A stretch of 64,000 nt of DNA. Origin: a virus. Made by a program: the position numbers and the translations under genes. Position 1 is the stretch's first letter; each line of letters opens with the position of its first letter. The notes under the pieces were generated by a model that saw only the letters and a list, made by a program, of their open reading frames with translations, was not told the origin of the DNA and ran no database searches. The DNA lies in the IMG/VR virus record IMGVR_UViG_3300045988_166613, positions 87,720-151,719 of that record, one strand, 5' to 3'. This document shows positions 1,741-45,088 of this stretch, piece by piece.

Positions 1741-1796
1741 AAAAACATATTAAACGACATAAAAGGACAAAATAAATAAAAAGGTAGGTGTTACAA

Positions 1797-3152
1797 ATGA
1801 ATAGTAAAGTTCAAAAATTTGAATCTGATGTATATAAATACATGGGATCTATAGATTTTAATGAAACAAAGAAAATTTATAGATCCGTAAAAAATGAATT
1901 AATAAAGAAAAAATTAGCCCCTTTTGTTTTTAATGAAGTAATGAACGAAGAAAACGGGTTAAATATAAGTGATTTGGAAACAAACGAACAAATAGCAATT
2001 GCAAAGGGGTTATATAATTATGGCTTAGAACAATTTAAACCAAGTAGCTATTTTAATACAAATGAACTAGGAGCATATGAAACTTATGTTAATCTTAAAG
2101 AAGATGATAGTATGGTTTTAGTTTTTGACAATGTAGATGAATATAGTGATGATTTTTATTGTTGTACTTACTGGCAACCTCACGAACAATATAGGGCTAG
2201 AAAAGAAAGGTTAGTAAGATATAATTTTGCTACTCAAAGAGAAGCAACTATAACAAGAACCAACTACGGGGCAATAAGAAAAGAAATAACATTGAATAGA
2301 CCAAACGTAGAAGGAATAAAAAAAATGATTAAAGAAGGAGATTATTTTCCTCCTGACGTATTAAGTTTGAATATTTTACTTTTAGAAGACAAAGTAGCAA
2401 ACGTAGAATATGATAAAAATAAAAGACAACTGAGAATAAGAATAAATTATGATATAGATGCAGTAGATTATACCGTGGTTGACTTTACTGACGGATGGCA
2501 TAGAGATACTGCTATCTATGAGTTATATAATGAAGGGTATGACGTAGAAAAAAGTTTCAAAGGCTTTCCCGTAAATATTTCTATTATTACACCAGAGCGA
2601 GCAGCAAAATTTGTTGGAAGACAAATGTTAGCAAATGTATCTAGTAAACAATATATAAAAGCTATACAAGATAATAATTATAATACTTTTATTAAGAAGG
2701 TTAATGCCAGTAAAGGTGTTCTACATGACCAAATAGCAAAAACAAGAAATGAATTTATAGAAATGGGAAAACTAACCCACTATGAAGTTTTTGAAAAAGG
2801 ATTAAGGTATGTAGAAAAAAATGAGAGAATAAAAATTGAAGGTAGAAATATAATGATTTTTGGTGTTGAAAACTATGTGAGAATTGTAAATACCATATTT
2901 GAGATATTAGAAGATAAAAAAGTAGATAGCAAAACAATGGAAATATTTAAAAGTGAAAATATTTGGCTAGGATATTTTGCAATATGGAGTTATTTACGAA
3001 AAAATAAATTAGATGACCTTGAAGAGTATGAATTAATTAAAAATGTGATTAATAACGCCATAATATTAAAAGATGAAATGAAAGAATTAAAAGTAAATTA
3101 TAAAAGCTTTATTATTAGTGATATTTATAATTTCTTTAGAGATTTAATATAA
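1797..3152 (+). CDS. DGQHR/DndB-like (ParB/Srx-fold) domain protein
   Basis: ATG at 1797 follows SD AAGGTAGGTG (the track start at 1788 is GTG). 'VVDFTDGWHRDTAI' resembles the DGQHR motif of DndB/ParB-nuclease-like proteins. Confidence 0.5.
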   Translation: MNSKVQKFESDVYKYMGSIDFNETKKIYRSVKNELIKKKLAPFVFNEVMNEENGLNISDLETNEQIAIAKGLYNYGLEQFKPSSYFNTNELGAYETYVNLKEDDSMVLVFDNVDEYSDDFYCCTYWQPHEQYRARKERLVRYNFATQREATITRTNYGAIRKEITLNRPNVEGIKKMIKEGDYFPPDVLSLNILLLEDKVANVEYDKNKRQLRIRINYDIDAVDYTVVDFTDGWHRDTAIYELYNEGYDVEKSFKGFPVNISIITPERAAKFVGRQMLANVSSKQYIKAIQDNNYNTFIKKVNASKGVLHDQIAKTRNEFIEMGKLTHYEVFEKGLRYVEKNERIKIEGRNIMIFGVENYVRIVNTIFEILEDKKVDSKTMEIFKSENIWLGYFAIWSYLRKNKLDDLEEYELIKNVINNAIILKDEMKELKVNYKSFIISDIYNFFRDLI

Positions 3153-3172
3153 AATTCAAAGGAGGATTATTT

Positions 3173-4243
3173 ATGTTTTCTAATTATATTGTAGATTATA
3201 ATAGAGCATTAAAAGAAATAAATAATTTAGATACTTTTTCAAAAAATAAGATAAAATTCTTAGAAGAACAAGGGTACGCAGATACTACAAAACAAAATTA
3301 TTGGAGTATGTTTAATAATCATATACATGATCTTGAAGTTATGTACGATAAAGATTTGGCGATGTTTAATGAGATGGAAGCATTAAGCATAATAAAAACA
3401 AGGATGACAACAGATTTAAGTACAATAGCTTCATTAAAAAGCTTAATCAATGGCTATGAAGAATGGGCATTAGAAACGGGTTTAAATCCCACCTATAACC
3501 CTTGCATAAATTGGAACACAAGAGAAATAGCAATTATCAACGAGGAAAAAATAAGAAAAAACTATATTTCTTTAGATGATTTATTTGCTTTATGGGATAA
3601 AACAAAAGATAGGGCAGAAATTATTACGGTACATGAATTTGCAATTGTACTTTTAGCAAGGTTGGGGCTAAAAGGATCTAAGTATAAAGAATTAAGATAT
3701 CTTAAAATGCAAGATATAGATTTAGATAGTTACATTATCAATGTAACTGATAGAGACGAAAATAATTTAGAAGATATTAAAGTAGTTAAGAAAATTAATA
3801 TAGATAAAAGAATTTTAGATGTTTTAGTTCAAGCTGATAAGCAAGAATATATGCGTAAAAAAGCTTACCATAAAATATCTGAAGAAGAATTTATAGACAC
3901 AGAGTATATATTAAAATCTACAAAGGGTAAAGTAATAGATTTGATGGCTATAAGAAAAGGTATAATAGACTTTTTTACAGAAGTTGATAGGGAATATATA
4001 CCTGCCAAAGATTTATTTAGAAACGCAGAAATAGATACACTTATAAAAATAAAAAGAACTAAAAAATGGAACAAATTAGATATGAAAGATTTTATAGAAG
4101 TCATAGAAGAGTATGAATTAAAAAAATCCTACAATATAGCCTTAAAATTAAAAGATCTATATATAAAAATTACAAATGATGATGATATTATATATGGGAA
4201 ATATAACTACGATGAAAATGGAAATAGAATAATATTAGACTGA
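3173..4243 (+). CDS. hypothetical protein, weak tyrosine-recombinase-like features (probably not catalytic)
   Basis: SD AAGGAGG upstream. 'VLLARLGLKGSKYKELRYLKMQDIDLD' resembles integrase box I, but with K in place of the catalytic R. No clear HxxR or Tyr box. Confidence 0.35.
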   Translation: MFSNYIVDYNRALKEINNLDTFSKNKIKFLEEQGYADTTKQNYWSMFNNHIHDLEVMYDKDLAMFNEMEALSIIKTRMTTDLSTIASLKSLINGYEEWALETGLNPTYNPCINWNTREIAIINEEKIRKNYISLDDLFALWDKTKDRAEIITVHEFAIVLLARLGLKGSKYKELRYLKMQDIDLDSYIINVTDRDENNLEDIKVVKKINIDKRILDVLVQADKQEYMRKKAYHKISEEEFIDTEYILKSTKGKVIDLMAIRKGIIDFFTEVDREYIPAKDLFRNAEIDTLIKIKRTKKWNKLDMKDFIEVIEEYELKKSYNIALKLKDLYIKITNDDDIIYGKYNYDENGNRIILD

Positions 4244-4273
4244 TGGGAAATAAAATTCCTATCAGTCTTTTTT
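4238..4273 (+). terminator. rho-independent terminator
   Basis: 12-bp stem GACTGATGGGAA/TTCCTATCAGTC (one G.U) with a 6-nt loop, followed by TTTTTT. The stop codon lies in the stem. Confidence 0.8.
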
Positions 4274-4284
4274 ATTATTAAATT

Positions 4285-4336
4285 GTTGAAATAAATTAAA
4301 TAATTACTTGATTTATAGTGATATTTGTGTTAATAT
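4285..4336 (+). promoter_or_regulatory. AT-rich box + sigmaA-type promoter
   Basis: GTTGAAATAAATTAAATAATT is followed by TTGATT-N17-TAATAT, with TGT just before the -10. Confidence 0.6.
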
Positions 4337-4358
4337 ATAATCAAAGGAGATGATAAAT

Positions 4359-4511
4359 ATGGAATTGATGAGAGATAAAACCAAAGAAAATATAATAGAT
4401 AGATTAACAACAGTTATAGCGATATTGGGAGTTGTTATAATATATTTGTTGGGAACAATAACCACATCACTTATAGGTGCTTATTTATTACATATAATTT
4501 ACGATAGATAA
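4359..4511 (+). CDS. small membrane peptide (50 aa)
   Basis: SD AAAGGAG lies 9 nt upstream. Hydrophobic segment 'VIAILGVVIIYLLGTITTSLIGAYLL'. Below the size cutoff of the ORF track. Confidence 0.45.
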   Translation: MELMRDKTKENIIDRLTTVIAILGVVIIYLLGTITTSLIGAYLLHIIYDR

Positions 4512-4513
4512 AA

Positions 4514-4565
4514 GTTAAAATAAATTAAAGAATTGATTGACAAATAATATTATCTATTGTATAAT
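4514..4565 (+). promoter_or_regulatory. AT-rich box + consensus sigmaA promoter
   Basis: GTTAAAATAAATTAAAGAATTGA is fused to TTGACA-N17-TATAAT. Confidence 0.75.
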
Positions 4566-4625
4566 AAAGACATAAGATAAAGAGATTAATACAACAAAGA
4601 ATAATATAAAAAGGAGCGATTTTAA

Positions 4626-5252
4626 ATGGAAACAATGATTAAAAATTGTCAAAGAGGAGATGTATTTTATGCTAATCTTGGAGAAAAACCAGAAGGAGTT
4701 CAAGATTGCGAACAATATGGGATGAGACCAGTTGTAATAATTCAAAATAATAAAGGAAACAGATATAGTCCTACTACAATAATTGCACCAATAACAACAA
4801 AGATAAACAAAAATAAGATTCCTACACACGTAAAACTAGACGGGGAATACATAGGTTTACCAAAAGAAAGTATGGCAATGTTAGAACAAATTAGAGTTTT
4901 AGATAAAAGAAAACTAAAAGAAAAAATAGGGGAAATAAGCCCAAAAGATAGAAAGAAAATAAATGTTGCAGCGGCATTATCTTTAAATCTATTATCTATA
5001 GAAGAAAAGAATTTAGAAATAATAGAAGAGAAAGTTAATGAAATTGAAAGAATAGATTCACACATAAGATATGCGATCAAAAATGGAGTAGATATAGAAA
5101 ATTTCTTTGAAGGTTTAATAGAAGAAAGAGAGGCTGTTATGGAGGATTTAGAAGCTTTTTGTAAAGCTAATGGATTAAATCATAATGATTTTTTGAAAGG
5201 GTGTAACAAAAGAAAAATAAGTAAAAAAAGCAACAAAATAGGGGTGTGTTAA
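4626..5252 (+). CDS. MazF/EndoA (PemK-family) endoribonuclease with ~85-aa C-terminal extension
   Basis: 'RGDVFYANL...RPVVIIQNNKGNRYSPTTIIAPITTKINKNKIPTHVKL...MLEQIRVLDKRKLKEKI' aligns along its length with B. subtilis EndoA/MazF. Residues after ~125 are extra. Confidence 0.9.
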   Translation: METMIKNCQRGDVFYANLGEKPEGVQDCEQYGMRPVVIIQNNKGNRYSPTTIIAPITTKINKNKIPTHVKLDGEYIGLPKESMAMLEQIRVLDKRKLKEKIGEISPKDRKKINVAAALSLNLLSIEEKNLEIIEEKVNEIERIDSHIRYAIKNGVDIENFFEGLIEEREAVMEDLEAFCKANGLNHNDFLKGCNKRKISKKSNKIGVC

Positions 5253-5255
5253 AAT

Positions 5256-5795
5256 ATGGCTATCGTTAAAATATTGGGGGACTATAAGAGTAAAAAAAAT
5301 AAGAATAATTTAGATAATTTTATAGTAAAAAAGCTTAGTTGTAATATAGATAAAGAGTTTAGTCAAGAGCTTTTTATGGAAAATTTTTTGATTGAAAAAA
5401 CAATAGCTAAAAATGAATCAAAAAGTGTTATTCAACAAAGGTTAAAAAATTTAGAAGATATAAAAAAGAAATATTTTATATCTAGTGATAGTTTAGAAAA
5501 TAAGATTACATTGTTAACCTGTTTTACCAAGTTATCTAATAAATATAATTCACAATTAATAGAATTTATTGAAGATAATTTAGTGGAAATATTAGAAAGG
5601 TATAAACTAAATTGGACAATAAGTATATTAAATCAAATCAAAAGATACGATGAAGAAATAGTTAAATATATAGTCTATCTAAAAGAATTAAAGTCAGAAA
5701 TGATCAAACTTGATTATGGAGGGACTATTCCCTCCTATAGAGATATTCAAGATAGTATCTCTATAGGAGGCGAGTACAACTTCCAAAAAGCATAA
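5256..5795 (+). CDS. hypothetical protein (co-transcribed with the MazF-like gene)
   Basis: Starts 4 nt after the mazF-like stop. No recognisable motif. Confidence 0.6.
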   Translation: MAIVKILGDYKSKKNKNNLDNFIVKKLSCNIDKEFSQELFMENFLIEKTIAKNESKSVIQQRLKNLEDIKKKYFISSDSLENKITLLTCFTKLSNKYNSQLIEFIEDNLVEILERYKLNWTISILNQIKRYDEEIVKYIVYLKELKSEMIKLDYGGTIPSYRDIQDSISIGGEYNFQKA

Positions 5796-5955: not shown

Positions 5956-7686
5956 ATGCCAAGAAAGAAAACACATGAAGAGTTTGTTAAAGAGATTAAA
6001 GATAAATATGGGAATGAGTATGAGATATTAGGCAAGTATGTTAATGCGAAAAATAAAATTAAAGTTAGACACAACTGTAATAAATGTAGTAATTACGAGT
6101 GGGAAGTTACGCCTGATAGTTTATTAAGAGGAACTAGATGTCCTATATGCAATGGTGGAGTTAAAAAGACACATAAAGAGTTTATTGAGAGAATTAGAAA
6201 AAAATATAATGGAGAATACGAGATTTTAGGAAAATATATAAATGCAAAAACTAAAATATTGGTAAGACATAATTGTGATAAATGTGATTTTCACAAATGG
6301 AATATTACGCCAAGTAATTTATTGAGAGGATATGGTTGCCCAAAGTGTGCGGGGAATATTAAAAAAACTACAGAAGAATTTAAACAAGAAGTTTATGATA
6401 AATATAAAGATGAATACATTGTTTTAGGAGAATATAAAAATACCAATTCTAAGATATTGATTGAACATAATTGTAAAGAATGTCATTATCATCAATGGGA
6501 AATAACCCCTAGCAAACTATTATGCGGTAGAGGTTGTCCTGTATGTGGAGGTACTAAGAAGAAGACGCATGAGGAATTTATTCAAGAAATTAAAGATAAA
6601 TATGGTAATGATTATGAGGTTTTGGGAGAATATGTAAGCAATGATAAAAAAGTATTAATAAGACATAATTCCGATAAGTGTAATTATCATGAGTGGAAAA
6701 CATTACCTAATAATTTGTTAAAAGGACATGGTTGCCCAGTTTGTGGTGGTAGAGAAGCCAAATTAGGTATTAACACTATATGGGATACCGACAGATGGAT
6801 GTGTAATTTAGGTGTTTCTGAGGAAGATGCAAAGAAATATAGCAGAGGCAGTAGTAGAAAAATCACTGTAACATGTCCCGATTGTGGGAGAAAAAAGAAA
6901 ATCGAACCTCATGCTATATTACAACATAAAACCATATTTTGTTCATGTGGTGATGGAAAGAGTTACCCTGAGAAATTTATTATGAATTTCTTAGAACAAT
7001 TAGGTTTAGAGTTTGAAACAGAGTATAAACCACAATGGATCGATAACAAAAGATACGATTTTCATATTAAAGATAATAGTTGTATTATTGAAACTCATGG
7101 CGAACAGCATTATAAACAAACATCAAGAAGAGGGGAGAGATCAAGAACACTTGAAGAAGAACAAGAAAACGATAAGTACAAGAGAGAAATGGCATTAAAG
7201 AATGGAATTAAGTATTACGTTGAATTAGACTGTAGAGAATCTAATATGGAGTGGATAAAAAAATCAATAATCAACTCTGAATTAAATAAGTTATTTGATT
7301 TATCAAATATAGATTGGACAAGCTGTGAAGAGTTTGCTAATAAAAATATAGTTAAGGAAGTATGTGATTATTGGAATCATAAAAGAGAAGATGAGACAAC
7401 AAGCGATTTAATGAGAAGATTTGTTTTGGCGAGAATAACGATAATAAGGTATCTTAAAAAAGGAACAGAGCTTGGTTGGTGTGAATATAATCCTAAAGAA
7501 CATTATAAGAAAGTAGAAGTATTTAAAGATAATAAAAGCTTAGGAATATTCTCATCTTGTGCCGAACTCGAAAGACAAAGTGAGAAGTTATTTGGGATAA
7601 AATTATTAAATCAAAGTATTTCAGATGTTTGTAATAGCAAAAAATCTCAATATAAAGGATTTACTTTTAAATATATAATAAATTAG
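5956..7686 (+). CDS. free-standing homing-endonuclease-like protein: 4 tandem zinc-ribbon modules + PD-(D/E)XK (Vsr/DUF559-like) core
   Basis: Four ~66-aa repeats 'KKTHEEF..KYG.EYE.LG.Y...K...RHNC.KC...W...P..LL.G.GCP.C.G' span nt 5965-6756. An extra CxxC..CxC follows, then 'YDFHIKDNSCIIETHGEQHY' (D...E.HG.QH nuclease motif). C-terminal 'YKGFTFKY'. Confidence 0.6.
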   Translation: MPRKKTHEEFVKEIKDKYGNEYEILGKYVNAKNKIKVRHNCNKCSNYEWEVTPDSLLRGTRCPICNGGVKKTHKEFIERIRKKYNGEYEILGKYINAKTKILVRHNCDKCDFHKWNITPSNLLRGYGCPKCAGNIKKTTEEFKQEVYDKYKDEYIVLGEYKNTNSKILIEHNCKECHYHQWEITPSKLLCGRGCPVCGGTKKKTHEEFIQEIKDKYGNDYEVLGEYVSNDKKVLIRHNSDKCNYHEWKTLPNNLLKGHGCPVCGGREAKLGINTIWDTDRWMCNLGVSEEDAKKYSRGSSRKITVTCPDCGRKKKIEPHAILQHKTIFCSCGDGKSYPEKFIMNFLEQLGLEFETEYKPQWIDNKRYDFHIKDNSCIIETHGEQHYKQTSRRGERSRTLEEEQENDKYKREMALKNGIKYYVELDCRESNMEWIKKSIINSELNKLFDLSNIDWTSCEEFANKNIVKEVCDYWNHKREDETTSDLMRRFVLARITIIRYLKKGTELGWCEYNPKEHYKKVEVFKDNKSLGIFSSCAELERQSEKLFGIKLLNQSISDVCNSKKSQYKGFTFKYIIN

Positions 7687-20612: not shown

Positions 20613-21469
20613 TGATAATAGATTGTAAAAAGATAAGAGAAGAAATAAAACAAGAATTGAAGAAAAAGGATTTAAGCAAGATAAAAGGAGTTTTTATTCA
20701 GATAGGAGATAATCAAGCTAGTAACTTATATGTTAATAACAAATGTAAGTTATGCAAGGAATTAGGAATAGATTATGAATATATTAAACTAGATGAGAAT
20801 ATATCTGAAGAGGAATTATTAAATATAATAGATATGTTAAACAAAACTAAATGTGTAACGGGGATAATGGTACAATTGCCATTACCAAAGCATATAAGTG
20901 AGGAAAAAGTTATAAATGCTATAGATCCTAATAAAGATATAGATGGATTTACTAATGTGAACAAAGGTAAATTAATGATAGGAGATGAAACTGGAATTAT
21001 TCCATGCACTCCGCAAGGAATAATAACAACCTTAGAACATGAAAATATAGATGTTGAAGGTAAAAATGTAGTTATAGTAGGAAGAAGTAATATAGTAGGT
21101 AAACCACTAGCACAATTATTAATAAATAAAGGGGCTACGGTAACCGTTTGTAACAGTAAAACTGATAGAGAAGTATTAAAACAACAAATCATTCTTTCTG
21201 ATATATTTATCAGTGCTATAGGACAACCTAATTACTTTAATAAAAGCTTTTTCATGGAAAATGATAATAATTTTTATCCAGAATTTTTAGAAAATATAAT
21301 AGCAATAGATGTGGGAATAAATAGAGATAAGAATAATAAGTTATGTGGGGATATTTCAAAAGATATTTATGATTATTTTGATAGTGTAACGCCAGTTCCT
21401 GGAGGCGTTGGTGTAATGACTGTCTTAGAGCTTGTAAGAAATCTAATAAAGTGTGGTGAGAATAATTAA
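20612..21469 (+). CDS. folD: bifunctional methylene-THF dehydrogenase/methenyl-THF cyclohydrolase
   Basis: Full-length similarity to FolD: 'GIMVQLPLP', 'DKDIDGF', 'PCTPQGI', 'VVIVGRSNIVGKP', 'TPVPGGVGVMTV'. The start overlaps the thyX-like stop (TAATG). Confidence 0.9.
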   Translation: MIIDCKKIREEIKQELKKKDLSKIKGVFIQIGDNQASNLYVNNKCKLCKELGIDYEYIKLDENISEEELLNIIDMLNKTKCVTGIMVQLPLPKHISEEKVINAIDPNKDIDGFTNVNKGKLMIGDETGIIPCTPQGIITTLEHENIDVEGKNVVIVGRSNIVGKPLAQLLINKGATVTVCNSKTDREVLKQQIILSDIFISAIGQPNYFNKSFFMENDNNFYPEFLENIIAIDVGINRDKNNKLCGDISKDIYDYFDSVTPVPGGVGVMTVLELVRNLIKCGENN

Positions 21470-21764
21470 TACAAATGAAATTAAAGAGCTTAGAGGGGTA
21501 TTCCCTCATGAGCTTAATAAAAATAAATTAAAGAATTACTTATACTTACACAGTGATGATGTTAAAGAAGGTTTTATAAATGAAACTTTAGTTTGGTATA
21601 AGAATAATACTTATAATAGAGAGATTTTCAAAGAGGATAAGGTAGAAAGAGAAGATATAATTACTAAAGTTAAACTTAAAGGAAGAGAGTTTGAAAAAGA
21701 GATTATACATAAGATAAAAACTGGAATAATAAAAGATTGGTATCAACTAGCATTAGTTTTATAA
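21453..21764 (+). CDS. hypothetical protein (doubtful 5' end)
   Basis: 103-codon open frame, but with a GTG start and no SD. A hairpin and a copy of the AT-rich box lie inside its first 30 codons. Confidence 0.35.
   Translation: MVRIINTNEIKELRGVFPHELNKNKLKNYLYLHSDDVKEGFINETLVWYKNNTYNREIFKEDKVEREDIITKVKLKGREFEKEIIHKIKTGIIKDWYQLALVL
21487..21514 (+). terminator. hairpin after folD
   Basis: AGCT..GAGGG(gtatt)CCCTC..AGCT: stems of 4 and 5 bp with an internal loop. Confidence 0.3.
21519..21537 (+). repeat. AT-rich box copy (inside the predicted ORF 21453..21764)
   Basis: AAAATAAATTAAAGAATTA. Confidence 0.5.
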
Positions 21765-21784
21765 AATTTATTTAATGGATATAG

Positions 21785-21813
21785 TTGCAAATAAAACGGA
21801 AAATAGGTATAAT
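21785..21813 (+). promoter_or_regulatory. sigmaA promoter
   Basis: TTGCAA-N17-TATAAT. Confidence 0.7.
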
Positions 21814-21819
21814 CAAATA

Positions 21820-21833
21820 AGAACATATGTTCG
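21820..21833 (+). promoter_or_regulatory. LexA (Cheo/SOS) box
   Basis: AGAACATATGTTCG contains the perfect palindrome GAAC-ATAT-GTTC. It matches the Gram-positive consensus CGAACRNRYGTTYC and starts 7 nt after the -10. Confidence 0.6.
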
Positions 21834-21958
21834 CACTTAAAGGTATATAATTTCATAGTGCCTCTGTAATTATATTAATATTAGATTACCTATACAAGGT
21901 TATAAGTAACTTAAAATTAGTATTAAGTAATTTATTTTTAGAAAATGGTAATTTAATA

Positions 21959-21987
21959 TTGAAATTAGTAAATATATGTAGTATATT
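21959..21987 (+). promoter_or_regulatory. second, gene-proximal promoter
   Basis: TTGAAA-N17-TATATT, about 20 nt upstream of the ATG at 22008. Confidence 0.45.
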
Positions 21988-22007
21988 AAATATGAGGAGG
22001 AGATATT

Positions 22008-22832
22008 ATGAAATATGAAAGCAAACCGAAGCCAAACAGTCAAGGATTAAGTATGAAAACATCCAAACCAGCTATGTATTGCATAGATTCCGTAGCAGAG
22101 GGAGCTAATAGAATAGGAGTTTCCATAGGAGAAAATTTCAATTGTACTAAAGCTTCAATAATTAGAGATATGATTGAGGCAGCGATAATATCTAATGCTA
22201 ATATATTAACCATAGAAGATAGAACTTTTTCTATAAGAGAACTTATAGAGATTGAAAACCCAGATATGAACAATATAACAAACATTATGGATATTGTATT
22301 GGATAGTAAAAAGGATTATATAGAAATAAAAGAAAATTTCAAAAATTTTATATTAAAAACAACTTATGAAATTTTTTATGAGATGAAAGAAGATATAAAA
22401 GATGAATTGGAACTAAATAAAGAAGACATTGAAAATTATGATTCAATTATTAATGATTTTAATTTCATAATTGAATCTTATAGAAGCACTAGAGAGAAAA
22501 GAGAATTTGAGGAGATCTATTTAAAAGACTTCACGGAATCTGTAGACGAGGTCATTTGTAGAATTGATGATTTAGAAGATTTTGTGTCTGAAAATGATTT
22601 GCTTTGTGATGATTTTGAAAAAAGATTTAAAGACAAGATTAAATCCTTACCAAGATATAATCAAATTAAACCATTATATTTTTATGATAAATTTAGATAT
22701 AAAAACATAACTACACAACTAAAATATACTGTAAAGTTGTGGTACAGATACTTACATTTTTATTCTGTTGGAAGAAATGAAGAACTTACTTATGGTGATT
22801 TTGAAGAACAAATATTTAATTTTATAAAATAA
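22008..22832 (+). CDS. hypothetical protein (possible N-terminal ribbon-helix-helix)
   Basis: SD GAGGAGGAG upstream. N-terminal 'KPAMYCIDSVAEGANRIGVSIGENFNCTKASIIRDMIEAAI' has an RHH-like pattern. The rest is acidic and helical. Confidence 0.55.
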   Translation: MKYESKPKPNSQGLSMKTSKPAMYCIDSVAEGANRIGVSIGENFNCTKASIIRDMIEAAIISNANILTIEDRTFSIRELIEIENPDMNNITNIMDIVLDSKKDYIEIKENFKNFILKTTYEIFYEMKEDIKDELELNKEDIENYDSIINDFNFIIESYRSTREKREFEEIYLKDFTESVDEVICRIDDLEDFVSENDLLCDDFEKRFKDKIKSLPRYNQIKPLYFYDKFRYKNITTQLKYTVKLWYRYLHFYSVGRNEELTYGDFEEQIFNFIK

Positions 22833-22841
22833 TTATTATAA

Positions 22842-22866
22842 AAGGGAGTATCTCTTTTACTCCCTT
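22842..22866 (+). terminator. terminator-like hairpin
   Basis: AAGGGAGTA/TACTCCCTT: perfect 9-bp stem with a 7-nt loop. Confidence 0.45.
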
Positions 22867-22894
22867 AATTATAAAGTGGGAGAGGGAGATACAT

Positions 22895-23197
22895 ATGACA
22901 AACTTAAATTTTAAAATTTACGATGAGATATTTATAGATCCAGAGGAATTCTTTAGTAAGACTAAAAATAAAGAACTTAATTTAGAAAGATTTATCTATG
23001 ATAATGAATCTGTTTATCTAAAACAAAGCATGAACGGATATGATTTTAGATGTTTATTAAGTGGAATTATGGAAGATGTTGAAGCTGAGAAAGAATACAT
23101 AGTAATAGCTAAAGTGAATGATGGAATTATGATAAGACATAAGGTTAGAGATGAGTTTGAGGATGAGTTTATTAATGAGTGGTTCTTAAAGTGTTAA
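22895..23197 (+). CDS. hypothetical protein
   Basis: SD GGGAGAGGGAG upstream. Confidence 0.6.
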   Translation: MTNLNFKIYDEIFIDPEEFFSKTKNKELNLERFIYDNESVYLKQSMNGYDFRCLLSGIMEDVEAEKEYIVIAKVNDGIMIRHKVRDEFEDEFINEWFLKC

Positions 23198-37970: not shown

Positions 37971-38918
37971 ATGGAAAACAGAACAGCAATGAACAAGGTA
38001 GAATTAGTAGGAGTAGTTAAAGAACATCAATTAAAAGAAGGTAAAAGTGATAATGGAAAATACATAAATGGATCATTAGTAGTAGCTTGTGGAGAAGCTG
38101 AAGTAAAATTAAAAGTTTATGTTGGTGAAAAAACAAAAGAAGGAAAAGTAAAAAAATCTTATGAAACATTAAATAAATTTATAAAAGAAGAATACCTAAC
38201 AATGGCTAAAGATAAAGATGAAGCAGCAGTAATAAGAGTATATGGATCAGGAGATTTCACACCACAATTTAGAGAGGAGCTATTTGTTCCAGAGAACGGA
38301 AAAGAGTGTAAATCAGTTATCTCAGTAGACTTAGGTTTTGGAAATATTTATGTTGATGAAAACAACAAAATAAAAGAAGAAGATTATAAAGCAACATTTG
38401 ATATAGAAATGTATGTTCAAGAAATAGAAGAAGAAGTTAAGAAAAATGGTGATGATGAAGAAGAAACAGGAAGAGTTAAGATTAAAGGATGTGTACCTTG
38501 CTATGGAGGTAAAGCTTTCCCAATAACTTTAATAGCTGGTACAGTGGTAGATGAAGAAGGTGAGTTCGATTTTGCAGAACAAATCAGAGAAAATGTTAGC
38601 GAAGGAGATTCAATGAATTTCTGGGGAGATATAAATTACATAAGCATATTAGAAAAGAAAAAGAAGGGTGGTTCATTAGGTAGAGCCAAAGTCGAAGAAA
38701 AAAGAACTACAATACATGAGCTTGTTGCTACAGGTGGGGAAGTCTTAGATGATGAAAAAGAATGGGAAGAAGAAGCAATAGAAAAAGCATTAAAAGAAAG
38801 AGCAATAGATATAAAAGAAAAAGAGGACAAGGCTAAACAAGAAAGTTCAAAAGGAACAGGATTAAGAGGTGGAAAAGATAAAGCAGAAAAGACTGAAAGA
38901 AGAAGACCTAAATTCTAA
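37971..38918 (+). CDS. single-stranded DNA-binding protein (OB-fold N-terminus, long charged tail)
   Basis: N-terminal 'NKVELVGVVKEH...NGSLVV' fits an SSB-type OB strand pattern. Very acidic/basic tail ending 'RRRPKF'. Sits at the head of the replication module. Confidence 0.55.
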   Translation: MENRTAMNKVELVGVVKEHQLKEGKSDNGKYINGSLVVACGEAEVKLKVYVGEKTKEGKVKKSYETLNKFIKEEYLTMAKDKDEAAVIRVYGSGDFTPQFREELFVPENGKECKSVISVDLGFGNIYVDENNKIKEEDYKATFDIEMYVQEIEEEVKKNGDDEEETGRVKIKGCVPCYGGKAFPITLIAGTVVDEEGEFDFAEQIRENVSEGDSMNFWGDINYISILEKKKKGGSLGRAKVEEKRTTIHELVATGGEVLDDEKEWEEEAIEKALKERAIDIKEKEDKAKQESSKGTGLRGGKDKAEKTERRRPKF

Positions 38919-38935
38919 TAAATACATAAAATAGT

Positions 38936-38966
38936 ATAAGGAAGGTTTTAATATCTCCTTCCTTAT
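38936..38966 (+). terminator. terminator-like hairpin
   Basis: ATAAGGAAGG/CCTTCCTTAT: perfect 10-bp stem with an 11-nt loop. Confidence 0.5.
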
Positions 38967-38994
38967 CTTAAAATAAATTAAAGAATTAAACAAA
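38967..38994 (+). repeat. AT-rich intergenic box, stand-alone copy
   Basis: CTTAAAATAAATTAAAGAATTAAACAAA. Belongs to the 33-nt perfect direct repeat at 38962-38994. Confidence 0.65.
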
Positions 38995-39031
38995 ATTTAA
39001 AAATATATAAGATTAAAGGAGAGAAATACAT

Positions 39032-40057
39032 ATGTTATCAAATGAATTACAAACATTATTTAATAAAGAATTTAAAGGTGAAGCAAAAGTTTCTAAACTG
39101 TCAGCAGATTTAAGAGGAAAAGTTATAGTAGTCTATGGAAGTAATAACTTAGGAAAAACTTTACAAGCTTCAAGAATGAAAAACCCAGTATTTATGCCAT
39201 TTGAAAAAGGAATGAACGGTGTACATGGTGCTATGGTGTTAACCACTAGAAGTTGGAGTCAAGCGAGAAAACATGCTAAAAAGTTAGCAGGTAAAAACTT
39301 TGTAAAATTACTACAACAGGGCGAACAAATTACCCTTATTATTGATGGTATAGAAAATGTCGGAAGATATTGTAGAGAATATGTAGCTAGTAAATATGAT
39401 GCTAGAGACATAGCAAGTGCTAAGGGCGGATATGGTGCTTGGCAACCATATGAAGATGAAATGCACAGTTGGGTAGATAGTATTATTTCTCTTGGATATA
39501 CAGTTATGTTCTTAGGTCATGAATCTTATGATAAAGATAAAGATAAATACACTATAAAAGGAGATAAAAGAAACATTGATCCAATTAAAGATAATGCTGA
39601 TATAGTTATTTACCTACAATCAAATGGTGTAGATGAAAATGGAAATGAGATACCTTCAAGTGGATATTTAGCAGAAACAAAAGATTTCTTTGCTAGAAGT
39701 AGATTTACATGTATGGATACAGTTATTCCAGAATATACAGCAGAGAATCTTGAAAAAGTAATTGTAGAAGGGATTCAAAGAGAGATAGATGAAAAAGGAT
39801 TAGAAAGTGTGTCTTTTGATGAACAACAAGAAATATATGAAACAGAAGATATGTCACTAGAAGAGATCAAGGAAGCAATAAAAGAGAAATACTTAGCTTT
39901 AGAAGAAATAGGGGAAGAAGAATTAGATAAATACGGTGAAATTGTAGAAGAACATTTAGGAGATGTTACTGTTAGTGAAGCTACAAGCAAGCAATTAGAA
40001 GCATTAAAGTGTATATTAGATGATCTTGAGGATTTATTAGAGGAATTAGAAGAATAG
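39032..40057 (+). CDS. Sak4-like (AAA_24/RecA-fold) recombination ATPase
   Basis: 'GKVIVVYGSNNLGKTLQA' Walker A in the Sak4 context, 'LIIDGIEN' Walker B, acidic C-terminal tail. Confidence 0.6.
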   Translation: MLSNELQTLFNKEFKGEAKVSKLSADLRGKVIVVYGSNNLGKTLQASRMKNPVFMPFEKGMNGVHGAMVLTTRSWSQARKHAKKLAGKNFVKLLQQGEQITLIIDGIENVGRYCREYVASKYDARDIASAKGGYGAWQPYEDEMHSWVDSIISLGYTVMFLGHESYDKDKDKYTIKGDKRNIDPIKDNADIVIYLQSNGVDENGNEIPSSGYLAETKDFFARSRFTCMDTVIPEYTAENLEKVIVEGIQREIDEKGLESVSFDEQQEIYETEDMSLEEIKEAIKEKYLALEEIGEEELDKYGEIVEEHLGDVTVSEATSKQLEALKCILDDLEDLLEELEE

Positions 40058-40060
40058 GTG

Positions 40061-40088
40061 ATAGGGGCTATTTAGCCTCTATTTCATT
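40061..40088 (+). terminator. terminator-like hairpin
   Basis: ATAGGGGCT/AGCCTCTAT: 9-bp stem (one G.U) with a 4-nt loop, followed by TTCATT. Confidence 0.45.
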
Positions 40089-40105
40089 AAAAAGGGGAGA
40101 GAAGA

Positions 40106-40585
40106 TTGAGCTTAGTAAAATGTCCAAAATGTGGTACTAAAAATGAAAAAGAAAATACAATAAAACATGGTAAAAGTTATTATTGCTTAAAATGTTTTGA
40201 AGATTTAGAGGAATATAAAGATTTAATATCAACAATATGTGAAATTTATAGAATTAAATCTCCTACTAGTCAAATGGTGAGTCAAATTAAAGATTATAAA
40301 GATAAATATAATTTCACTAACTCTGGTATTAAATACACTCTTAAATTTTATTATGAAATATTAGAGAATTCTGTAATGGATAATGTAGGTTTGGGAATAG
40401 TTCCCTATTTTTATGATAAAGCAAAAAATTATTACAAAAATAGATTTGATTTAGAAGAAAAAGCAGAGCTATTTGTTAATCAAGAAAAGATTAAAACATT
40501 TAAGGTAAGTAACAATAACAAGCAAGAATTTAAACGTCATGAGTTAAATATAGACATTGATTGGAGTGAAATAGATGAAGAGTAG
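40106..40585 (+). CDS. zinc-ribbon protein (possible replication accessory/loader)
   Basis: TTG start follows AAAGGGGAGAG. 'KCPKCG...YYCLKCF'. Overlaps the dnaB-like start. Confidence 0.5.
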   Translation: MSLVKCPKCGTKNEKENTIKHGKSYYCLKCFEDLEEYKDLISTICEIYRIKSPTSQMVSQIKDYKDKYNFTNSGIKYTLKFYYEILENSVMDNVGLGIVPYFYDKAKNYYKNRFDLEEKAELFVNQEKIKTFKVSNNNKQEFKRHELNIDIDWSEIDEE

Positions 40586-42140
40586 TAGACAAAGTAAATT
40601 AATAAAAAAATATTATGATAATAGAGCTTCAATGCAGATTTTAGGTTGTTTAATGCAGCAACCTCAGTTAATAAAATCAAGAAAATATAAATTAAGTGAG
40701 TTAGATTTTATTACTCCATATCACAAGACTTTGTTTTTAACTATATATAATTTAGCTATACAAGGTGCTGAAGAAATAACTTTAGCAGATGTAGAAACAT
40801 ATTTACATAATTCAAGACCAATAGACTACGCTCAAATATTTGAAAAAGATTTTGATGGAGTAGAATGGATTGTAGGTTTAAAAGAGGATTCTAATCTAGC
40901 TAATTTTGATTACTATTATAATACGGTAATTAAAATGTCTATACTAAGAAGCAAAATTGAATCTGGTACAGATGTAGGGGATATTTTAGATAAGAATGAA
41001 CTAGACGCTAATATAACAAGTGGACAATTAGAAAGATTAGATAATATGTCTATTAAAGATTTATTAGAGTATTTCGACAAAAAAAACTTAGAATCTAAGA
41101 AAAGGTTTATAGTAGAAGAAGATGAAACTGATAGAAAATGTGGAGACAATGCAGAGGAATTAAGAGAACAATTAAAACAAGAACCCAATTTTGGTTTTCC
41201 TTTAGAAAGTGAATATTTTAATACTATAACTAGAGGATGGAGAAGAAAAGGTTTTTATCTTGAAACTAGAGATAGTGGAATGGGAAAAACAAGAGTAGCT
41301 ATTAAAAGATTATTACAAATAACAGCGGAAGAGATTTGGGACTTTGAAATTAAAGATTTTAAAAAGAATGAAGCAGCAATAGGAAATAGTGCTTTGTATA
41401 TTGGTACAGAAATGGATACTTATGAAGAAATCGAACCTATGATGTGGGCTTTTGTATCAGGTGTAGATGAAGATAGAATCAGAATGAATGAGTTAACAGA
41501 GGAAGAAGAGGAAAGAGTTGATAAAGCTATTCAAATACTAAAGAAAACTAAGTTATTTTTAATAGATGAAGAAGATTATGATATTACATATTTATGGTAT
41601 AAAGTTGAACAGTATGTTACTGAATATAATATTTGTGCAGTTGCATTGGATTACATAGAATTAAATAATGCTTTGGTATCTGAGTTTATACAAGAAACTA
41701 GAGGTATGGGAGCTAGAGAAGATCAAGTCTTATTAAACTTATCAAGAAACATAAAAAATATAGCTAAAAAATTTAATGTTGCGTTCTTTTCTTTTACCCA
41801 AACTACCGATGAAGCTAGAAGAGATAACATAAGAGATCAAAGAGCGGTAAAGGGGGCTAGAAGTTTACCTAACAAAGCTGATGTTGGTTTAGTTACTTTT
41901 GAACCCACAAAAAAAGAATTAGACTTAATAGAACCTATATTAGAACAATTAGAAAGAAGAAATGGATTAATTGAGGGGAAAGTACCTAATGTATGCTATT
42001 CTTTCTATAAAAATAGAGGAGGAAGAATTAAAAACGTTAAGATTTGGGGTTATCAGAATTTAGGTAATATGCGTTTTATAGATATGTTTTGTACAGACCA
42101 CAAATACACACAAATTAATATAGATAGATATAGAAATTAA
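40575..42140 (+). CDS. DnaB-like replicative helicase
   Basis: DnaB N-domain pattern 'ASMQILGCLMQQPQL'. RecA-like core with 'RDSGMGKTR' (Walker A) and 'AVALDYIE' (Walker B). Confidence 0.75.
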   Translation: MKSSRQSKLIKKYYDNRASMQILGCLMQQPQLIKSRKYKLSELDFITPYHKTLFLTIYNLAIQGAEEITLADVETYLHNSRPIDYAQIFEKDFDGVEWIVGLKEDSNLANFDYYYNTVIKMSILRSKIESGTDVGDILDKNELDANITSGQLERLDNMSIKDLLEYFDKKNLESKKRFIVEEDETDRKCGDNAEELREQLKQEPNFGFPLESEYFNTITRGWRRKGFYLETRDSGMGKTRVAIKRLLQITAEEIWDFEIKDFKKNEAAIGNSALYIGTEMDTYEEIEPMMWAFVSGVDEDRIRMNELTEEEEERVDKAIQILKKTKLFLIDEEDYDITYLWYKVEQYVTEYNICAVALDYIELNNALVSEFIQETRGMGAREDQVLLNLSRNIKNIAKKFNVAFFSFTQTTDEARRDNIRDQRAVKGARSLPNKADVGLVTFEPTKKELDLIEPILEQLERRNGLIEGKVPNVCYSFYKNRGGRIKNVKIWGYQNLGNMRFIDMFCTDHKYTQINIDRYRN

Positions 42141-42162
42141 AGGGAGGATGAGAATGAAATAG

Positions 42163-43302
42163 ATGGATAGGGATGAATTACTAAAAGAAATCACTACAGA
42201 AGATGTAAAAAAGATAATGAAAGATCTGGGAAGTAATGAACCTATTCCAGATAAACAAGGTAATCTTCGTTTTCAAACAATATGTCATTGTGGGGAGAAG
42301 CATAAACTATGGTTTTATCCAGATACTAAAAGTTTCATGTGTTATACAAACTGTGGTTCTATGAGCTTATATGACTTAATATCACAAGTAAAATGTTGTG
42401 AGTTTTCAGAAGCTTTTAAATATGTAGCTGATATTAAGGGAATAGATTTACATAAAAAAAGAAGTATAGGATTAAAGATACATACTGATAACACAGATTT
42501 AGAAATATTAAAAAAACATACCTTTCATAATACAAAAAAAGAAATCAAACAATTACCTTCTTTTAATGAGAATGTATTGAGTATATTTGATAATTATTAT
42601 CCTGATGAATGGGAAAAAGAAGGAATTCATGAAGATATAGCTGATTATTTTGGTATTAAATTTTATTTTAACCAATTCAAATGTATTATTCCCCATAGAG
42701 ATATTTATGGTTCTTTAGTAGGGATAAGAGGTAGAAATTTTTTTCAGAGAGAAATTGAACAAGGTAAAAAATATATACCAGTTACAATACAAGGATTAAC
42801 TTATCGTTATCCAACAGCAATGAATTTATATGGTATTTATCAAAACCAAAATAATATTAGAAAAACGAGAAAAGTAATTTTATTTGAGAGTGAAAAATCG
42901 GTTCTTAAATATGGGAGTATTTATGGTCAAAATAATAATATTAGTTTGGCAACAATGTCAATGAATTTTACTTTGCAACAAAGAGATTTAATTCTTTACT
43001 TAGGTGTAGATGAGGTTATATTGGCTTGGGATAAACAATATAGGCTAGAATATCTGAAACCAGAATATAAGAATACTAAAGAATATAAAGAATTTGTTCA
43101 ATATATTAAAAAAATAAAAAAAGTAGTGTCATTGCTAATTAACTATTGTAATGTATCAGTTATCTTTTGTTGGGATGACCGTATAGACTACAAAGATGCT
43201 CCTATAGATAAAGGACAAGATATTTTTGAAGAATTGTTAAATGAAAGATTCTTAATAGAATCTACGGATGAATTAGAAGAGGAGATTTTAGATGCAATAT
43301 AA
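42163..43302 (+). CDS. DNA primase (CHC2 zinc finger + TOPRIM)
   Basis: 'CHCGEKHKLWFYPDTKSFMCYTNCG' is a DnaG-type Zn finger. TOPRIM-like 'ILFESEKSVL'. Confidence 0.7.
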   Translation: MDRDELLKEITTEDVKKIMKDLGSNEPIPDKQGNLRFQTICHCGEKHKLWFYPDTKSFMCYTNCGSMSLYDLISQVKCCEFSEAFKYVADIKGIDLHKKRSIGLKIHTDNTDLEILKKHTFHNTKKEIKQLPSFNENVLSIFDNYYPDEWEKEGIHEDIADYFGIKFYFNQFKCIIPHRDIYGSLVGIRGRNFFQREIEQGKKYIPVTIQGLTYRYPTAMNLYGIYQNQNNIRKTRKVILFESEKSVLKYGSIYGQNNNISLATMSMNFTLQQRDLILYLGVDEVILAWDKQYRLEYLKPEYKNTKEYKEFVQYIKKIKKVVSLLINYCNVSVIFCWDDRIDYKDAPIDKGQDIFEELLNERFLIESTDELEEEILDAI

Positions 43303-45076
43303 AGTTATAAATAAAAATAAAGATTGTTTAAATAATGATAATTTATTATATACATTATTACAACAGAGGGGTGTAAAAGATCCTAATAAATTAATGAATT
43401 TAGATAGTGATTGTGTTTATGATGGAATGCTATTAAATAACATGGATAGAGGACTAAATATGTTATATTGGCATTTAACAAATGGAAGTAAAATACACGT
43501 AATAGATGATAGTGATTTTGATGGTTATTCTTCAGCAGCTTCATGTATAAATTACATAAGAGATATTGGTTTTAATAACGATATAACTTTTTCAATCCAT
43601 AAAAACAAAGAGCATGGAATTATACTTAATAGATTAAAAGATTATGAATTCGATTTATTGATTGTACCTGATGCTGGTAGTAGTGATATGGAACAATGTA
43701 AAGAATTAAAAGATAAAGATATTCTTATATTAGATCACCATAATTTTAATCCTTTAGATTGGAAAGATATTGATAATACTATAATTATTAATTGTCAAGA
43801 TGGGATTTATCCCAACAATACATTATCAGGTGTAGGAGTTGTTTATAAATTTCTAAAAGAATTTGATAAAAAATATGGATTTAATAAAGCTGATAATTAT
43901 TTAGATTTAGCTGCACTTGGAATGATAGCAGATGATATGGATTTAAGAAATCCAGAAACAAGATATTTAGTATTAAATGGATTAAATAAAATAAATGAAG
44001 GTAATTGTAATTTATTTATCAAAGAGATAATGAGTAAAAATAACCTAGACAAGCTTAATATTTTAGATGTTGGTTGGAAAATAGCCCCACTAATTAATGG
44101 CGTTGTAAGAATGGGGACGCTAGAAGAAAAAACAGATGTTTTTAAGGCTTTTATTAACACAAAAGAAGATAGAGAATATCAACCTAGAAAAAAGAAAGGC
44201 GAAAAAGAAAAGCCTCCTATAGAATTACAATCCTTACAAAAATATATGGCAAGAGAAATTAAAAATATAAAAGGTAGACAAGATAGGTTAGTAAAAAAAG
44301 GCGTAGAGTTAGTAGATAATAAAATCAACGAAGAAAAATTAGACGCTAATAAAATGATAATAGTTGATATTACACAAGAATTAGAAAAAACTTTTACTGG
44401 ATTGGTTGCTAACAAATTAGCAAGTACATATAAAAGACCTGTAATACTACTTAGACAAAAAGAAAGCGATACTTATGGAGGTAGTGGAAGAAATTATAAA
44501 TTATCTTCTATTGAAAGTCTCCAAGAATTCCTAAATAATACTAAATTATTTAATTGGATTAATGGACATGACAACGCTTTTGGTTTCAACATAAATAAAA
44601 GTAATATAAACAATTTAGTACAAACAACCAATAATTTACTAAAAGATATGAAAATAGAAGATTGTTATTGGGTTGATTATGAAATGCCTGTAGGTAGATT
44701 AAAACCTAAAAATATTATTGATATAGGTAAGTGGAAAGATGTATGGGGAAATACATTACAAGAACCACAATTTGCAATAACTGATATATATGTAAAACCA
44801 GAAGAAGTACAGCTTTTAGGTACTAAAAAGAACATTATCAAAATTAATAAAACTATTGGAGATAAAACAATAACCTTCATTAAATTTTTTGCTAATGAAA
44901 ATATATATAACAAGATGATTTTAAAATCAACTAGAGGTTTAAGTAAAAAAACTCCTAAAAAATTAAAGTTTAATATAATAGGTAAATTCAACATTAATGA
45001 ATGGGAGGGTAAAGAATATCCTCAAATAGAAATTATAGATTTTGAAGTGTCAGAAGGAAGAAAAATAGAATTTTAG
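43292..45076 (+). CDS. RecJ-like DHH-family ssDNA exonuclease
   Basis: DHH motifs 'DDSDFDGYSS', 'LIVPDAGS', 'LILDHHN' and the DHHA1-like 'NGHDNAFGF'. Confidence 0.75.
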   Translation: MQYKVINKNKDCLNNDNLLYTLLQQRGVKDPNKLMNLDSDCVYDGMLLNNMDRGLNMLYWHLTNGSKIHVIDDSDFDGYSSAASCINYIRDIGFNNDITFSIHKNKEHGIILNRLKDYEFDLLIVPDAGSSDMEQCKELKDKDILILDHHNFNPLDWKDIDNTIIINCQDGIYPNNTLSGVGVVYKFLKEFDKKYGFNKADNYLDLAALGMIADDMDLRNPETRYLVLNGLNKINEGNCNLFIKEIMSKNNLDKLNILDVGWKIAPLINGVVRMGTLEEKTDVFKAFINTKEDREYQPRKKKGEKEKPPIELQSLQKYMAREIKNIKGRQDRLVKKGVELVDNKINEEKLDANKMIIVDITQELEKTFTGLVANKLASTYKRPVILLRQKESDTYGGSGRNYKLSSIESLQEFLNNTKLFNWINGHDNAFGFNINKSNINNLVQTTNNLLKDMKIEDCYWVDYEMPVGRLKPKNIIDIGKWKDVWGNTLQEPQFAITDIYVKPEEVQLLGTKKNIIKINKTIGDKTITFIKFFANENIYNKMILKSTRGLSKKTPKKLKFNIIGKFNINEWEGKEYPQIEIIDFEVSEGRKIEF

Positions 45077-45088
45077 AGGTGAGACATA

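Follow-up and report, generated by a model that had tools for sequence, protein, structure and literature searches.

The 64-kb window analyzed here (the whole stretch of 64,000 nt, positions 87,720 to 151,719 of IMG/VR virus record IMGVR_UViG_3300045988_166613) contains, at positions 21785 to 22007, a control region in which a near-consensus binding site for LexA, the repressor of the SOS response, adjoins a predicted promoter, P1. Downstream of these lie, in order, a leader containing a 21-bp tandem repeat array, a second predicted promoter (P2), a ribosome binding site (RBS), a gene for an acidic protein of 274 amino acids (aa), a hairpin, and a smaller conserved gene (Table 1). A LexA box on its own is ordinary; what makes 21820-21833 a strong candidate for an operator through which host LexA would control P1 is the combination of its near-consensus sequence, its uniqueness in the window, and its phylogenetic footprint. 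As a first-pass annotation of this DNA had described, the P1 hexamers TTGCAA and TATAAT are 17 nt apart and are closely followed by the box, all of which can be read directly from the sequence. Six nucleotides (CAAATA) separate the -10 element from the box, whose first base is the seventh nucleotide past the -10, and the box covers the predicted P1 transcription start.

The box was scored against the Cheo consensus (CGAACRNRYGTTYC / CGAACATATGTTCG), the latter form of which is the LexA consensus of Bacillus subtilis (PMC8270828 Table 1); the LexA sites of Clostridium perfringens and Clostridium acetobutylicum are said to resemble the Bacillus site, in a statement of PMC4234289 that cites Johnston 1997 and Nuyts 2001. 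The window sequence, AGAACATATGTTCG, differs from CGAACATATGTTCG at a single position. At a threshold of no more than one mismatch to this 14-mer, the window contains one site, and no such site was found in any of 100 shuffled sequences. (It should be noted that the 8-base core by itself is not significant, because at least one match to GAAC-N4-GTTC was present in 22 of the 100 shuffles.) The core occurs once in the window, as the first-pass annotation had stated. When one mismatch to the core is allowed, nine sites are found, eight of which are inside open reading frames (ORFs) and have four to seven mismatches overall; 21820-21833 is the only intergenic site in the 64 kb with one core mismatch or fewer.

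Comparative evidence for this arrangement comes from relatives of the 274-aa gene, whose loci were fetched and whose upstream regions were aligned, allowing five diverged versions of the locus to be compared. Four close to moderate homologues (98, 73, 50, and 47% identical) are present on contigs of 142-151 kb, two of which are in NCBI assemblies: GCA_053449505.1, which NCBI assigns to C. perfringens and which encodes the 47% homologue, and GCA_029464055.1. More distant homologues (34, 26, and about 20% identical) came from an exhaustive profile search. In every version in which the protein is at least 34% identical, the -35 element, the -10 element, and the arms of the box are unchanged, while the P1 spacer varies; this invariance covers relatives whose proteins are 98, 73, 50, and 34% identical. 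Within the box, which becomes CGAACATAAGTTCG in L002 and L007 and CGAACAGATGTTCG in L088, the center can be ATAT, ATAA, or AGAT and the outermost 5' base is A (the window, L008, and L003/L004) or C (L002, L007, and L088), with the GAAC/GTTC(G) arms invariant. In L088 the P1 spacer has been rewritten, yet TTGCAA-N17-TATAAT-N5-CGAACAGATGTTCG is retained; there the upstream gene is nucleoside deoxyribosyltransferase-like, in place of folD and a 103-aa ORF. This pattern, as judged from the aligned sequences, is a clean phylogenetic footprint of a predicted promoter and operator. In the 6-13 kb scanned around each relative, this box is the only strong one, and the same scan applied to Bacillus phage SPβ finds the published boxes at yorB, yorL, yonT, and yopT.

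The conserved palindrome could instead serve a phage-encoded factor or form a 5'-terminal hairpin in the mRNA, and in the predicted transcript it does fold as a 4-bp 5' hairpin. However, the conserved positions are exactly those of the CGAAC/GTTCG arms that LexA contacts, while the central four nucleotides vary, and scans of the window, which covered part of its ORFs, revealed no LexA-like or other obvious factor. It is thus highly unlikely that the palindrome is something other than a LexA site in vivo.

Two features near the footprint should also be described. In L003/L004/L014 the upstream region, promoters, and repeats are almost identical to window positions 21740-22040, while the protein is just 47% identical; divergence starts at the RBS and start codon, and therefore a recombination breakpoint (a mosaic boundary) is present at the start of the gene. 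Between folD and P1 there is a 103-aa ORF with a GTG start (21453-21764), which is kept as 101-103 aa in some relatives and has shrunk to 39 aa in L001/L002; its coding status is uncertain, and it holds a copy (at 21521) of a 17-mer repeat that is discussed below.

The geometry of promoter and box has also been found elsewhere. A search of public collections for the exact layout TTGCAA-N17-TATAAT-N7-GAAC-N4-GTTC returned three viral loci and 72 metagenome loci. The metagenome loci, none of which is related to this phage, serve as a control for the promoter-box geometry; most have the extended Cheo consensus and many have a second box within the spacer. The genes behind this layout include Y-family polymerases (Pfam IMS), an SRAP peptidase, a radical-SAM/HhH repair protein, and small XRE-type regulators. 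Since SOS and repair genes lie behind the identical layout, it represents a standard Firmicute SOS promoter design. (The spacing was fixed in the query, so the search shows no preference for this spacing over others.) Taken together, the near-consensus sequence, its uniqueness, the footprint that reaches down to 34% identity, and the layout shared with SOS genes support the first-pass proposal of a LexA operator on a genuine promoter, and make it very probable that the predicted operator and promoter are real.

Table 1. Predicted features of the control region, its genes, and the repressor module, in window coordinates
Feature	Position	Strand	Basis
YopQ/SroE-like gene	1788..3152	+	BLASTP vs SPβ YopQ, E = 4e-12
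MrpR/SroF-like integrase-fold repressor gene, 356 aa	3173..4243	+	Pfam MrpR_N_CB, 37.9 bits (cut-off 27)
Promoter P1: -35 TTGCAA (21785-21790), 17-nt spacer, -10 TATAAT (21808-21813)	21785..21813	+	hexamer-pair list and conservation
LexA (Cheo/DinR) box AGAACATATGTTCG	21820..21833		1 mismatch to CGAACATATGTTCG
CU-containing stretch AUUUCAUAGUGCCUC, predicted partner of the RBS/start codon in the long P1 transcript (weak candidate)	21850..21864	+	inverted repeat with 22000-22014
21-bp tandem repeat array, 3.2 units, consensus AGTAATTTAATATTAGAAAAT	21905..21971	+	Tandem Repeats Finder (TRF): period 21, score 57
Promoter P2: TTGAAA-N17-TATATT	21959..21987	+	hexamer-pair list and conservation
RBS GAGGAGGAG	21994..22002	+	read from sequence
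Gene for 274-aa acidic protein, family not matched	22008..22832	+	ORF list; homologue searches
GC-containing hairpin AAGGGAGTA-N7-TACTCCCTT past the stop codon	22842..22866	+	folding of window and relatives
Conserved partner gene, ~100 aa	22895..23197	+	relatives' gene tables and alignment

The ATG at 22008 is 188 nt from the LexA box, in agreement with the leader of about 190 nt that had been annotated; however, this leader is not featureless, but consists mainly of the 21-bp array, which overlaps the -35 element of P2. Within the array, RGTAAYTT cores start at 21905, 21926, and 21947, an exact 21-bp spacing, and a fourth unit is degenerate. This is the single cluster of RGTAAYTT in the window and contains its only intergenic copies, and the core positions relative to the ATG (-103/-82/-61) are kept in relatives. 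Two distant homologues, L090 (3.0 copies, 88% matches) and L088, are likewise preceded by arrays of 21-bp period, with another sequence; TRF at its threshold reports no array in L002, L007, or L087. The array is probably an operator, and as such a candidate binding site for the product of the 274-aa gene or for a partner.

P2, the second promoter of the first-pass annotation, is present and is conserved close to the gene; its -10 variants, TACAAT and TATAGT, keep T1, A2, and T6 and are functionally neutral. An equivalent of P2 is found in L090, which is without P1 and the box. Thus, P2 and the repeats look like the ancestral control region of the family, and P1 and the LexA box like an upstream add-on in one lineage. 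The RBS is largely conserved: it is identical in the window, L008, L002, and L007 (AGGAGGAG), and has substitutions in L003/L004 (GAGGAGGCG) and L088 (AAGAGGTGA). For a transcript from P1, folding predictions pair the stretch at 21850-21864 with the RBS and start codon in four of the five variants, and the Shine-Dalgarno sequence and AUG are less accessible in the long than in the short leader in all five, at only 0.7-2.9 standard deviations below shuffled controls.

The leader also bears on an earlier suggestion, that the product of P1 is a small RNA of its own, under LexA control and about 115 nt long, which would end at a T-tract near 21935. The T-run is there (21931-21939), the window sequence at 21900-21940 allows a hairpin with UUUAUUUUU behind it, and the minimum free energy (MFE) of the leader is somewhat better than that of shuffled sequences (z = -2.7). 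However, the hairpin that precedes the T-run is broken or replaced in L008, L002, L007, and L088, the 41 predicted pairs of the leader fold include none with a compensatory change, there is no match in Rfam even at E <= 1, and the terminator scan makes no call. The T-run itself lies in unit 2 of the array, and the phased 21-bp DNA repeats explain the conserved blocks. A separate small RNA is therefore very improbable. No small conserved ORF was seen in the leader, either on reading or in the ORF list.

The 274-aa protein has an isoelectric point of 4.8, and its residues 166-195 form a patch with a net charge of -10. Profile searches against Pfam, PHROGs, and PDB sequences gave no match. In addition, no homologue was found by tblastn among phages (including SPβ) and plasmids, no relative was found by a protein search of viral contigs and GTDB genomes, and megablast of the region against GenBank phages gave no match. 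An AlphaFold (AF2) model built from a ten-sequence alignment has a predicted local distance difference test score of 84 and a predicted template modeling score of 0.75 (with a five-sequence alignment the former was 49, too poor for use). In this model the protein is a mostly helical monomer: residues 1-17 are disordered, residues 20-75 form two helices, the first of 20 residues, and a β-hairpin, and the remainder is helical. Foldseek of the model against PDB and BFVD gives nothing at E <= 0.001. The ribbon-helix-helix (RHH) N-terminus that had been suggested for this ORF was not borne out, since no RHH family appears among the Pfam matches of ten family members even at E <= 10, no match exists in PDB or PHROGs, and the disordered tail of the model is followed by helix-helix-β-hairpin; a strand that depends on dimerization might be missed by the monomer model.

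An arrangement of this kind, in which a tandem array overlaps the promoter (here the P2 -35) of the gene that it precedes, with a period within the ~19-22 bp of iterons, raises the possibility that the 274-aa protein binds iteron-like repeats in the DNA as an initiator or regulator, within an autoregulated, plasmid-type rep/iteron or partition-type module of a plasmid prophage. LexA-controlled P1 would then boost this protein, or transcribe through its sites, after damage, and in this way trigger replication. The 21-bp arrays of different sequence upstream of distant homologues, the wing-like helix-helix-β-hairpin of the N-terminal model, and the occurrence of relatives as circular plasmids and as isolate contigs of 142-151 kb would fit such a module. 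On the other hand, neither the fold nor the sequence matches a Rep, ParB/ParR, winged-helix, or RHH protein; the protein is strongly acidic; a related C. botulinum plasmid has a separate replication initiator and ParB; TRF at its threshold gives no array in three of the relatives, as noted above; and no inflection of GC skew is seen at 22 kb. (The skew rises monotonically and is uninformative on a replication origin.) A module of this type is, on this evidence, improbable.

Behind the 274-aa gene, an ORF of ~95-106 aa follows the homologue in every aligned relative, including the distant L087, L088, and L090, and the two genes are a conserved pair that may be co-transcribed. The smaller protein has no similarity to SPβ YorB or YopT. 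The hairpin between the genes is without a clean U-tract, and the promoter/terminator scan did not call a terminator there. Its stem, GGGAGTA-N7-TACTCCC, has an alternative in the fold of window 22833-22900 (MFE -19.3 kcal/mol): the 3' arm can instead pair with the RBS of the next gene, GGGAGAGGGAGATAC. Both alternatives are kept in the C. perfringens-type relatives, and the hairpin, as modeled, may switch translation or termination for the gene of the ~100-aa partner. In the relatives, the cassette is flanked on one side by genes of nucleotide metabolism and on the other by a variable accessory region (RNase H, RtcB, Macro, AbiGi, SocA-like).

Insight into what such a cassette might do comes from the type of phage that carries it. 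All of the large ORFs in the window are on the + strand, and PHROG and Pfam scans identify a helicase, an NAD-ligase, a DNA methylase, FolD, thymidine kinase, two topoisomerase II subunits, Sak4, a DnaB-like helicase, a primase, a RecJ-like exonuclease, exonuclease V/Dda, a PHP-type polymerase split by a homing endonuclease, and a split NrdD. This was previously taken for a lytic-looking replication arm in which a LexA-gated switch would be unexpected, and neither description stands. The DNA polymerase is 41.6% identical to YorL of SPβ, and the genes of block 37971-50366 follow the order of SPβ yorF-G-H-I-J-K-L. Moreover, the equivalent arm of SPβ contains LexA boxes at yorB and yorL (PMC8270828 Table 1), and a further box is present at the antirepressor gene yopT (PMC8270828; bioRxiv 10.1101/2025.11.27.690993). 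The polymerase ORFs of the window (45089-46582 and 48123-50366) are separated by the homing-endonuclease ORF (46770-47546), and the anaerobic ribonucleotide reductase NrdD is likewise in two ORFs (60857-62008 and 62292-63704), which suggests introns or inteins, as in SPβ nrdE/nrdF.

The start of the window holds the genes of a possible repressor. A YopQ-like gene and an MrpR-like gene are adjacent there; in SPβ, the repressor operon ends with this pair. Compared pairwise with YopR, the MrpR-like protein is only weakly similar (E = 9e-5); it exceeds the Pfam threshold for the N-terminal core-binding domain of MrpR, and no C-terminal MrpR domain was detected in it. The region 1788-5252 resembles an SPβ-type repressor module. 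After the MrpR-like gene, positions 4243-4626 contain a good terminator and two repeat-element promoters, and no LexA-like box; a 53-aa membrane-like ORF (4350-4511) and a 208-aa protein with an N-terminal PemK/MazF toxin domain (4626-5252) are further members of the module. A MazF-domain gene is also found near the MrpR-like gene in L012, an unrelated large phage, and in C. botulinum pNPD1_1. Just beyond the module, 5956-7686 encodes a 576-aa HNH-type endonuclease with four internal 198-nt (66-aa) repeats of a Cys-rich module (6055-6745).

The repeat element of these promoters is a 17-mer, AAATAAATTAAAKAATT, of which the window has 21 copies, all on the + strand, where 0.29 would be expected; sites include 4289, 4518, 11968, 15678, 19845, 21521, 31015, 32115, 37771, 38971, 53628, 58369, and 58917. 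The 17-mer is frequently extended to AAATGTTGAAATAAATTAAAKAATTGATTGACA-N17-TATAAT, directly upstream of consensus TTGACA promoters, and other copies lie just before an RBS. The SPβ-type switch uses asymmetric operators of the SPBRE/Phi3TRE kind, repeated at numerous intergenic positions. In form, the 17-mer parallels SPBRE, the element bound by MrpR (PMC10516654). Judged by its sequence and placement, the 17-mer is a candidate operator of the MrpR-like repressor, analogous to SPBRE, or a phage-specific promoter element.

The nearest relatives in plasmid databases are circular C. botulinum plasmids of 197-215 kb, with a polymerase that is 56% identical. One of these, the 197-kb pNPD1_1 (L094, NZ_CP013295.1), shares the replication block and also encodes ParB, a MazF-type toxin, a separately annotated replication initiator, and an MrpR-like protein in which both MrpR domains are present. 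A scan of 50 kb of the related C. botulinum plasmid gave no strong LexA box; within 6832-10015 of L094, a weak box, TAAACACTTGTTCG, follows an extended -10 directly after the mrpR-like gene and precedes a 93-aa ORF. Because of the yorF-to-yorL synteny, the YopQ-like/MrpR-like pair, the repeated 17-mer, and these plasmid relatives, the phage is identified as an SPβ-like temperate element rather than a lytic phage, and it is possibly a plasmid prophage.

In SPβ and phi3T, SOS induction proceeds through LexA-controlled small antirepressors, YopT (72 aa) and phi3T_99 (100 aa) (bioRxiv 10.1101/2025.11.27.690993). The genes for these Sar proteins are positioned one ORF downstream of the gene for the repressor, SroF/MrpR (bioRxiv 10.1101/2025.11.27.690993; MrpR in PMC10516654). 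The present phage shares with this system an SPβ-like backbone, an MrpR-type repressor gene preceded by a YopQ-like gene, a repeat across the genome that is a candidate operator, and a LexA box on the promoter of a gene that otherwise matches no known family; it differs in having a second promoter and a 21-bp array, and in its host, which is Clostridium rather than Bacillus. Arbitrium genes were not seen, although no search was aimed at them. The classical Sar layout is instead followed by the C. botulinum plasmid and by L012 (IMGVR_UViG_3300050336_000035, 167 kb), a difference that speaks against equating the cassette with Sar. In L012, TTGCAA-N17-TATAAT-N7-AGAACATATGTTCT is located right before a 91-aa ORF, and in the interval 2700-5650 this ORF is followed by genes for a DndB-like protein (446 aa) and an MrpR-like protein (345 aa, both MrpR domains), with MazF-domain and AgrB-like genes ahead; this locus is likely a Sar-type switch outside Bacillus.

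LexA-gated antirepressors of temperate phages include Tum of coliphage 186, AntC of N15, and the Ant-type proteins of the Gifsy phages (in part, PMC3121763). The logic there, in which a non-cleavable repressor is paired with a LexA-repressed gene whose product triggers induction, would be the same as that putatively present here; there is no homology, and the Gram-negative LexA motif differs. Another parallel is GIL01, a tectivirus of Bacillus thuringiensis (PMC4551915, PMC6182141), where host LexA directly represses a Firmicute phage promoter (a predicted interaction in the present case), two promoters are close together, and the prophage is extrachromosomal. The window phage is unrelated, encodes an MrpR-like repressor, and has a single box, whereas GIL01 lacks a master repressor of its own and depends on the co-repressor gp7, with LexA acting on tandem promoters P1/P2 (PMC4551915, PMC6182141).

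The other LexA boxes of SPβ (yorB, yorL, yolC/yolD-uvrX, yonT, and yokF; Au et al. 2005 in PMC8270828) are, like that of the window, of the Cheo type and on promoters in the early/replication arm, and some of them start ahead of the -10 and others shortly behind it (PMC8270828). Of the roughly ten SOS boxes of SPβ, most are at genes of unknown or repair function (PMC8270828). This raises the question of whether the cassette, with a genuine LexA box, is simply an SOS-boosted accessory gene pair that is unrelated to lysis-lysogeny and has a function in repair, replication help, host takeover, or anti-defence. It would then resemble SPβ yorB, yolD-uvrX, and yokF, which have LexA boxes without being an induction switch. 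The variable accessory region beside the cassette in relatives, the SOS-independent expression that P2 would provide, and the absence of the box from distant homologues, as for an optional regulatory add-on, all point in this direction. However, this is the sole LexA box in a 64-kb window that includes the repressor module, and it has one mismatch to the consensus, compared with three to five for the SPβ boxes, pointing to tight, switch-like repression rather than mild modulation. An accessory role is a possible, rather doubtful, explanation.

The explanation that we favor, and consider on balance probable, is that 21820-21833 is a working LexA operator of the C. perfringens host, located on a σA-type P1 that heads a stand-alone SOS-inducible cassette of this SPβ-like temperate phage. 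As long as the DNA of a lysogen is undamaged, initiation or promoter escape at P1 would be blocked by a LexA dimer bound to the box. Upon DNA damage, activated RecA would promote the self-cleavage of LexA and P1 would fire; its transcript would pass through the 21-bp array and the LexA-independent P2 and continue into the 274-aa gene and probably the ~100-aa gene behind it. The cassette would thus have two inputs: local control through P2 and the array, likely bound by the cassette's own product or a partner, and an SOS override through P1. The purpose would most likely be to pass the SOS signal into the lysis-lysogeny or early program of the phage.

Several observations weigh against this account, or against parts of it. 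Promoter-like hexamer pairs are not enriched in the window, which is 26% GC (108 were found and 121 are expected), and the P1 and P2 calls therefore rest on conservation and not on match. No LexA box is present at the locus in L090 (26% identity) or L087 (~20%), and SOS control is therefore limited to one sub-lineage rather than the whole gene family. P2 would give expression without SOS unless it is itself repressed, and occlusion of the RBS by the long leader, a weak effect of the modeled folds, would blunt an SOS-boosted dose of the protein. Since the window represents 64 kb of a genome of ~146 kb, the rest of it may contain further LexA boxes and a true sar-like gene. Finally, with respect to a role in induction, the product is 274 aa, modeled as a monomer, rather than a 72-100-aa dimer with the YopT/Sar fold, and it has no Pfam Yopt match or YopT similarity; moreover, its gene is ~17.8 kb from the MrpR-like gene (the box is ~17.6 kb downstream of it) rather than one ORF downstream with the box in between, as for sar.

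A role in induction must therefore be put forward only tentatively. The MrpR/SroF-type repressor is without a self-cleaving domain, and given the precedent of LexA-gated antirepressors, the cassette is a reasonable candidate for the link between SOS and induction; by analogy with those systems, such a role is possible, at somewhat long odds. Less likely again is a specific form of it, in which the 274-aa protein, alone or with its ~100-aa partner, would be a new kind of SOS-triggered inducer, unrelated to Sar, that acts on the MrpR/SroF-type repressors of clostridial SPβ-like plasmid prophages. Equally speculative is its regulatory side, in which host LexA would gate the cassette at P1 and the 21-bp iteron-like operator would limit it at P2, the entry of the SOS signal having shifted from a small repressor-side gene to a remote cassette for which no structural match was found. 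Two alternatives present themselves: in this lineage another effector has taken over the SOS input, or the cassette is, like SPβ yorB, an accessory unit with an SOS boost, and the actual switch would then be located in the remaining ~80 kb of the genome.

Temperate phages of the SPβ family were already known to carry LexA operators on promoters; what the present locus adds is an uncharacterised clostridial lineage, a structurally unmatched target, and an iteron-like operator. If LexA does gate the cassette, then this locus marks the point at which DNA damage enters the regulatory circuit of a large family of C. perfringens and C. botulinum prophages related to Bacillus SPβ, elements of ~145-200 kb that appear to persist in isolates, some of them as plasmids. 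How an integrase-fold repressor is switched off has been worked out only recently, and only in Bacillus; with its two promoters, one operator, and two small genes, this cassette is a testable candidate for the clostridial counterpart.

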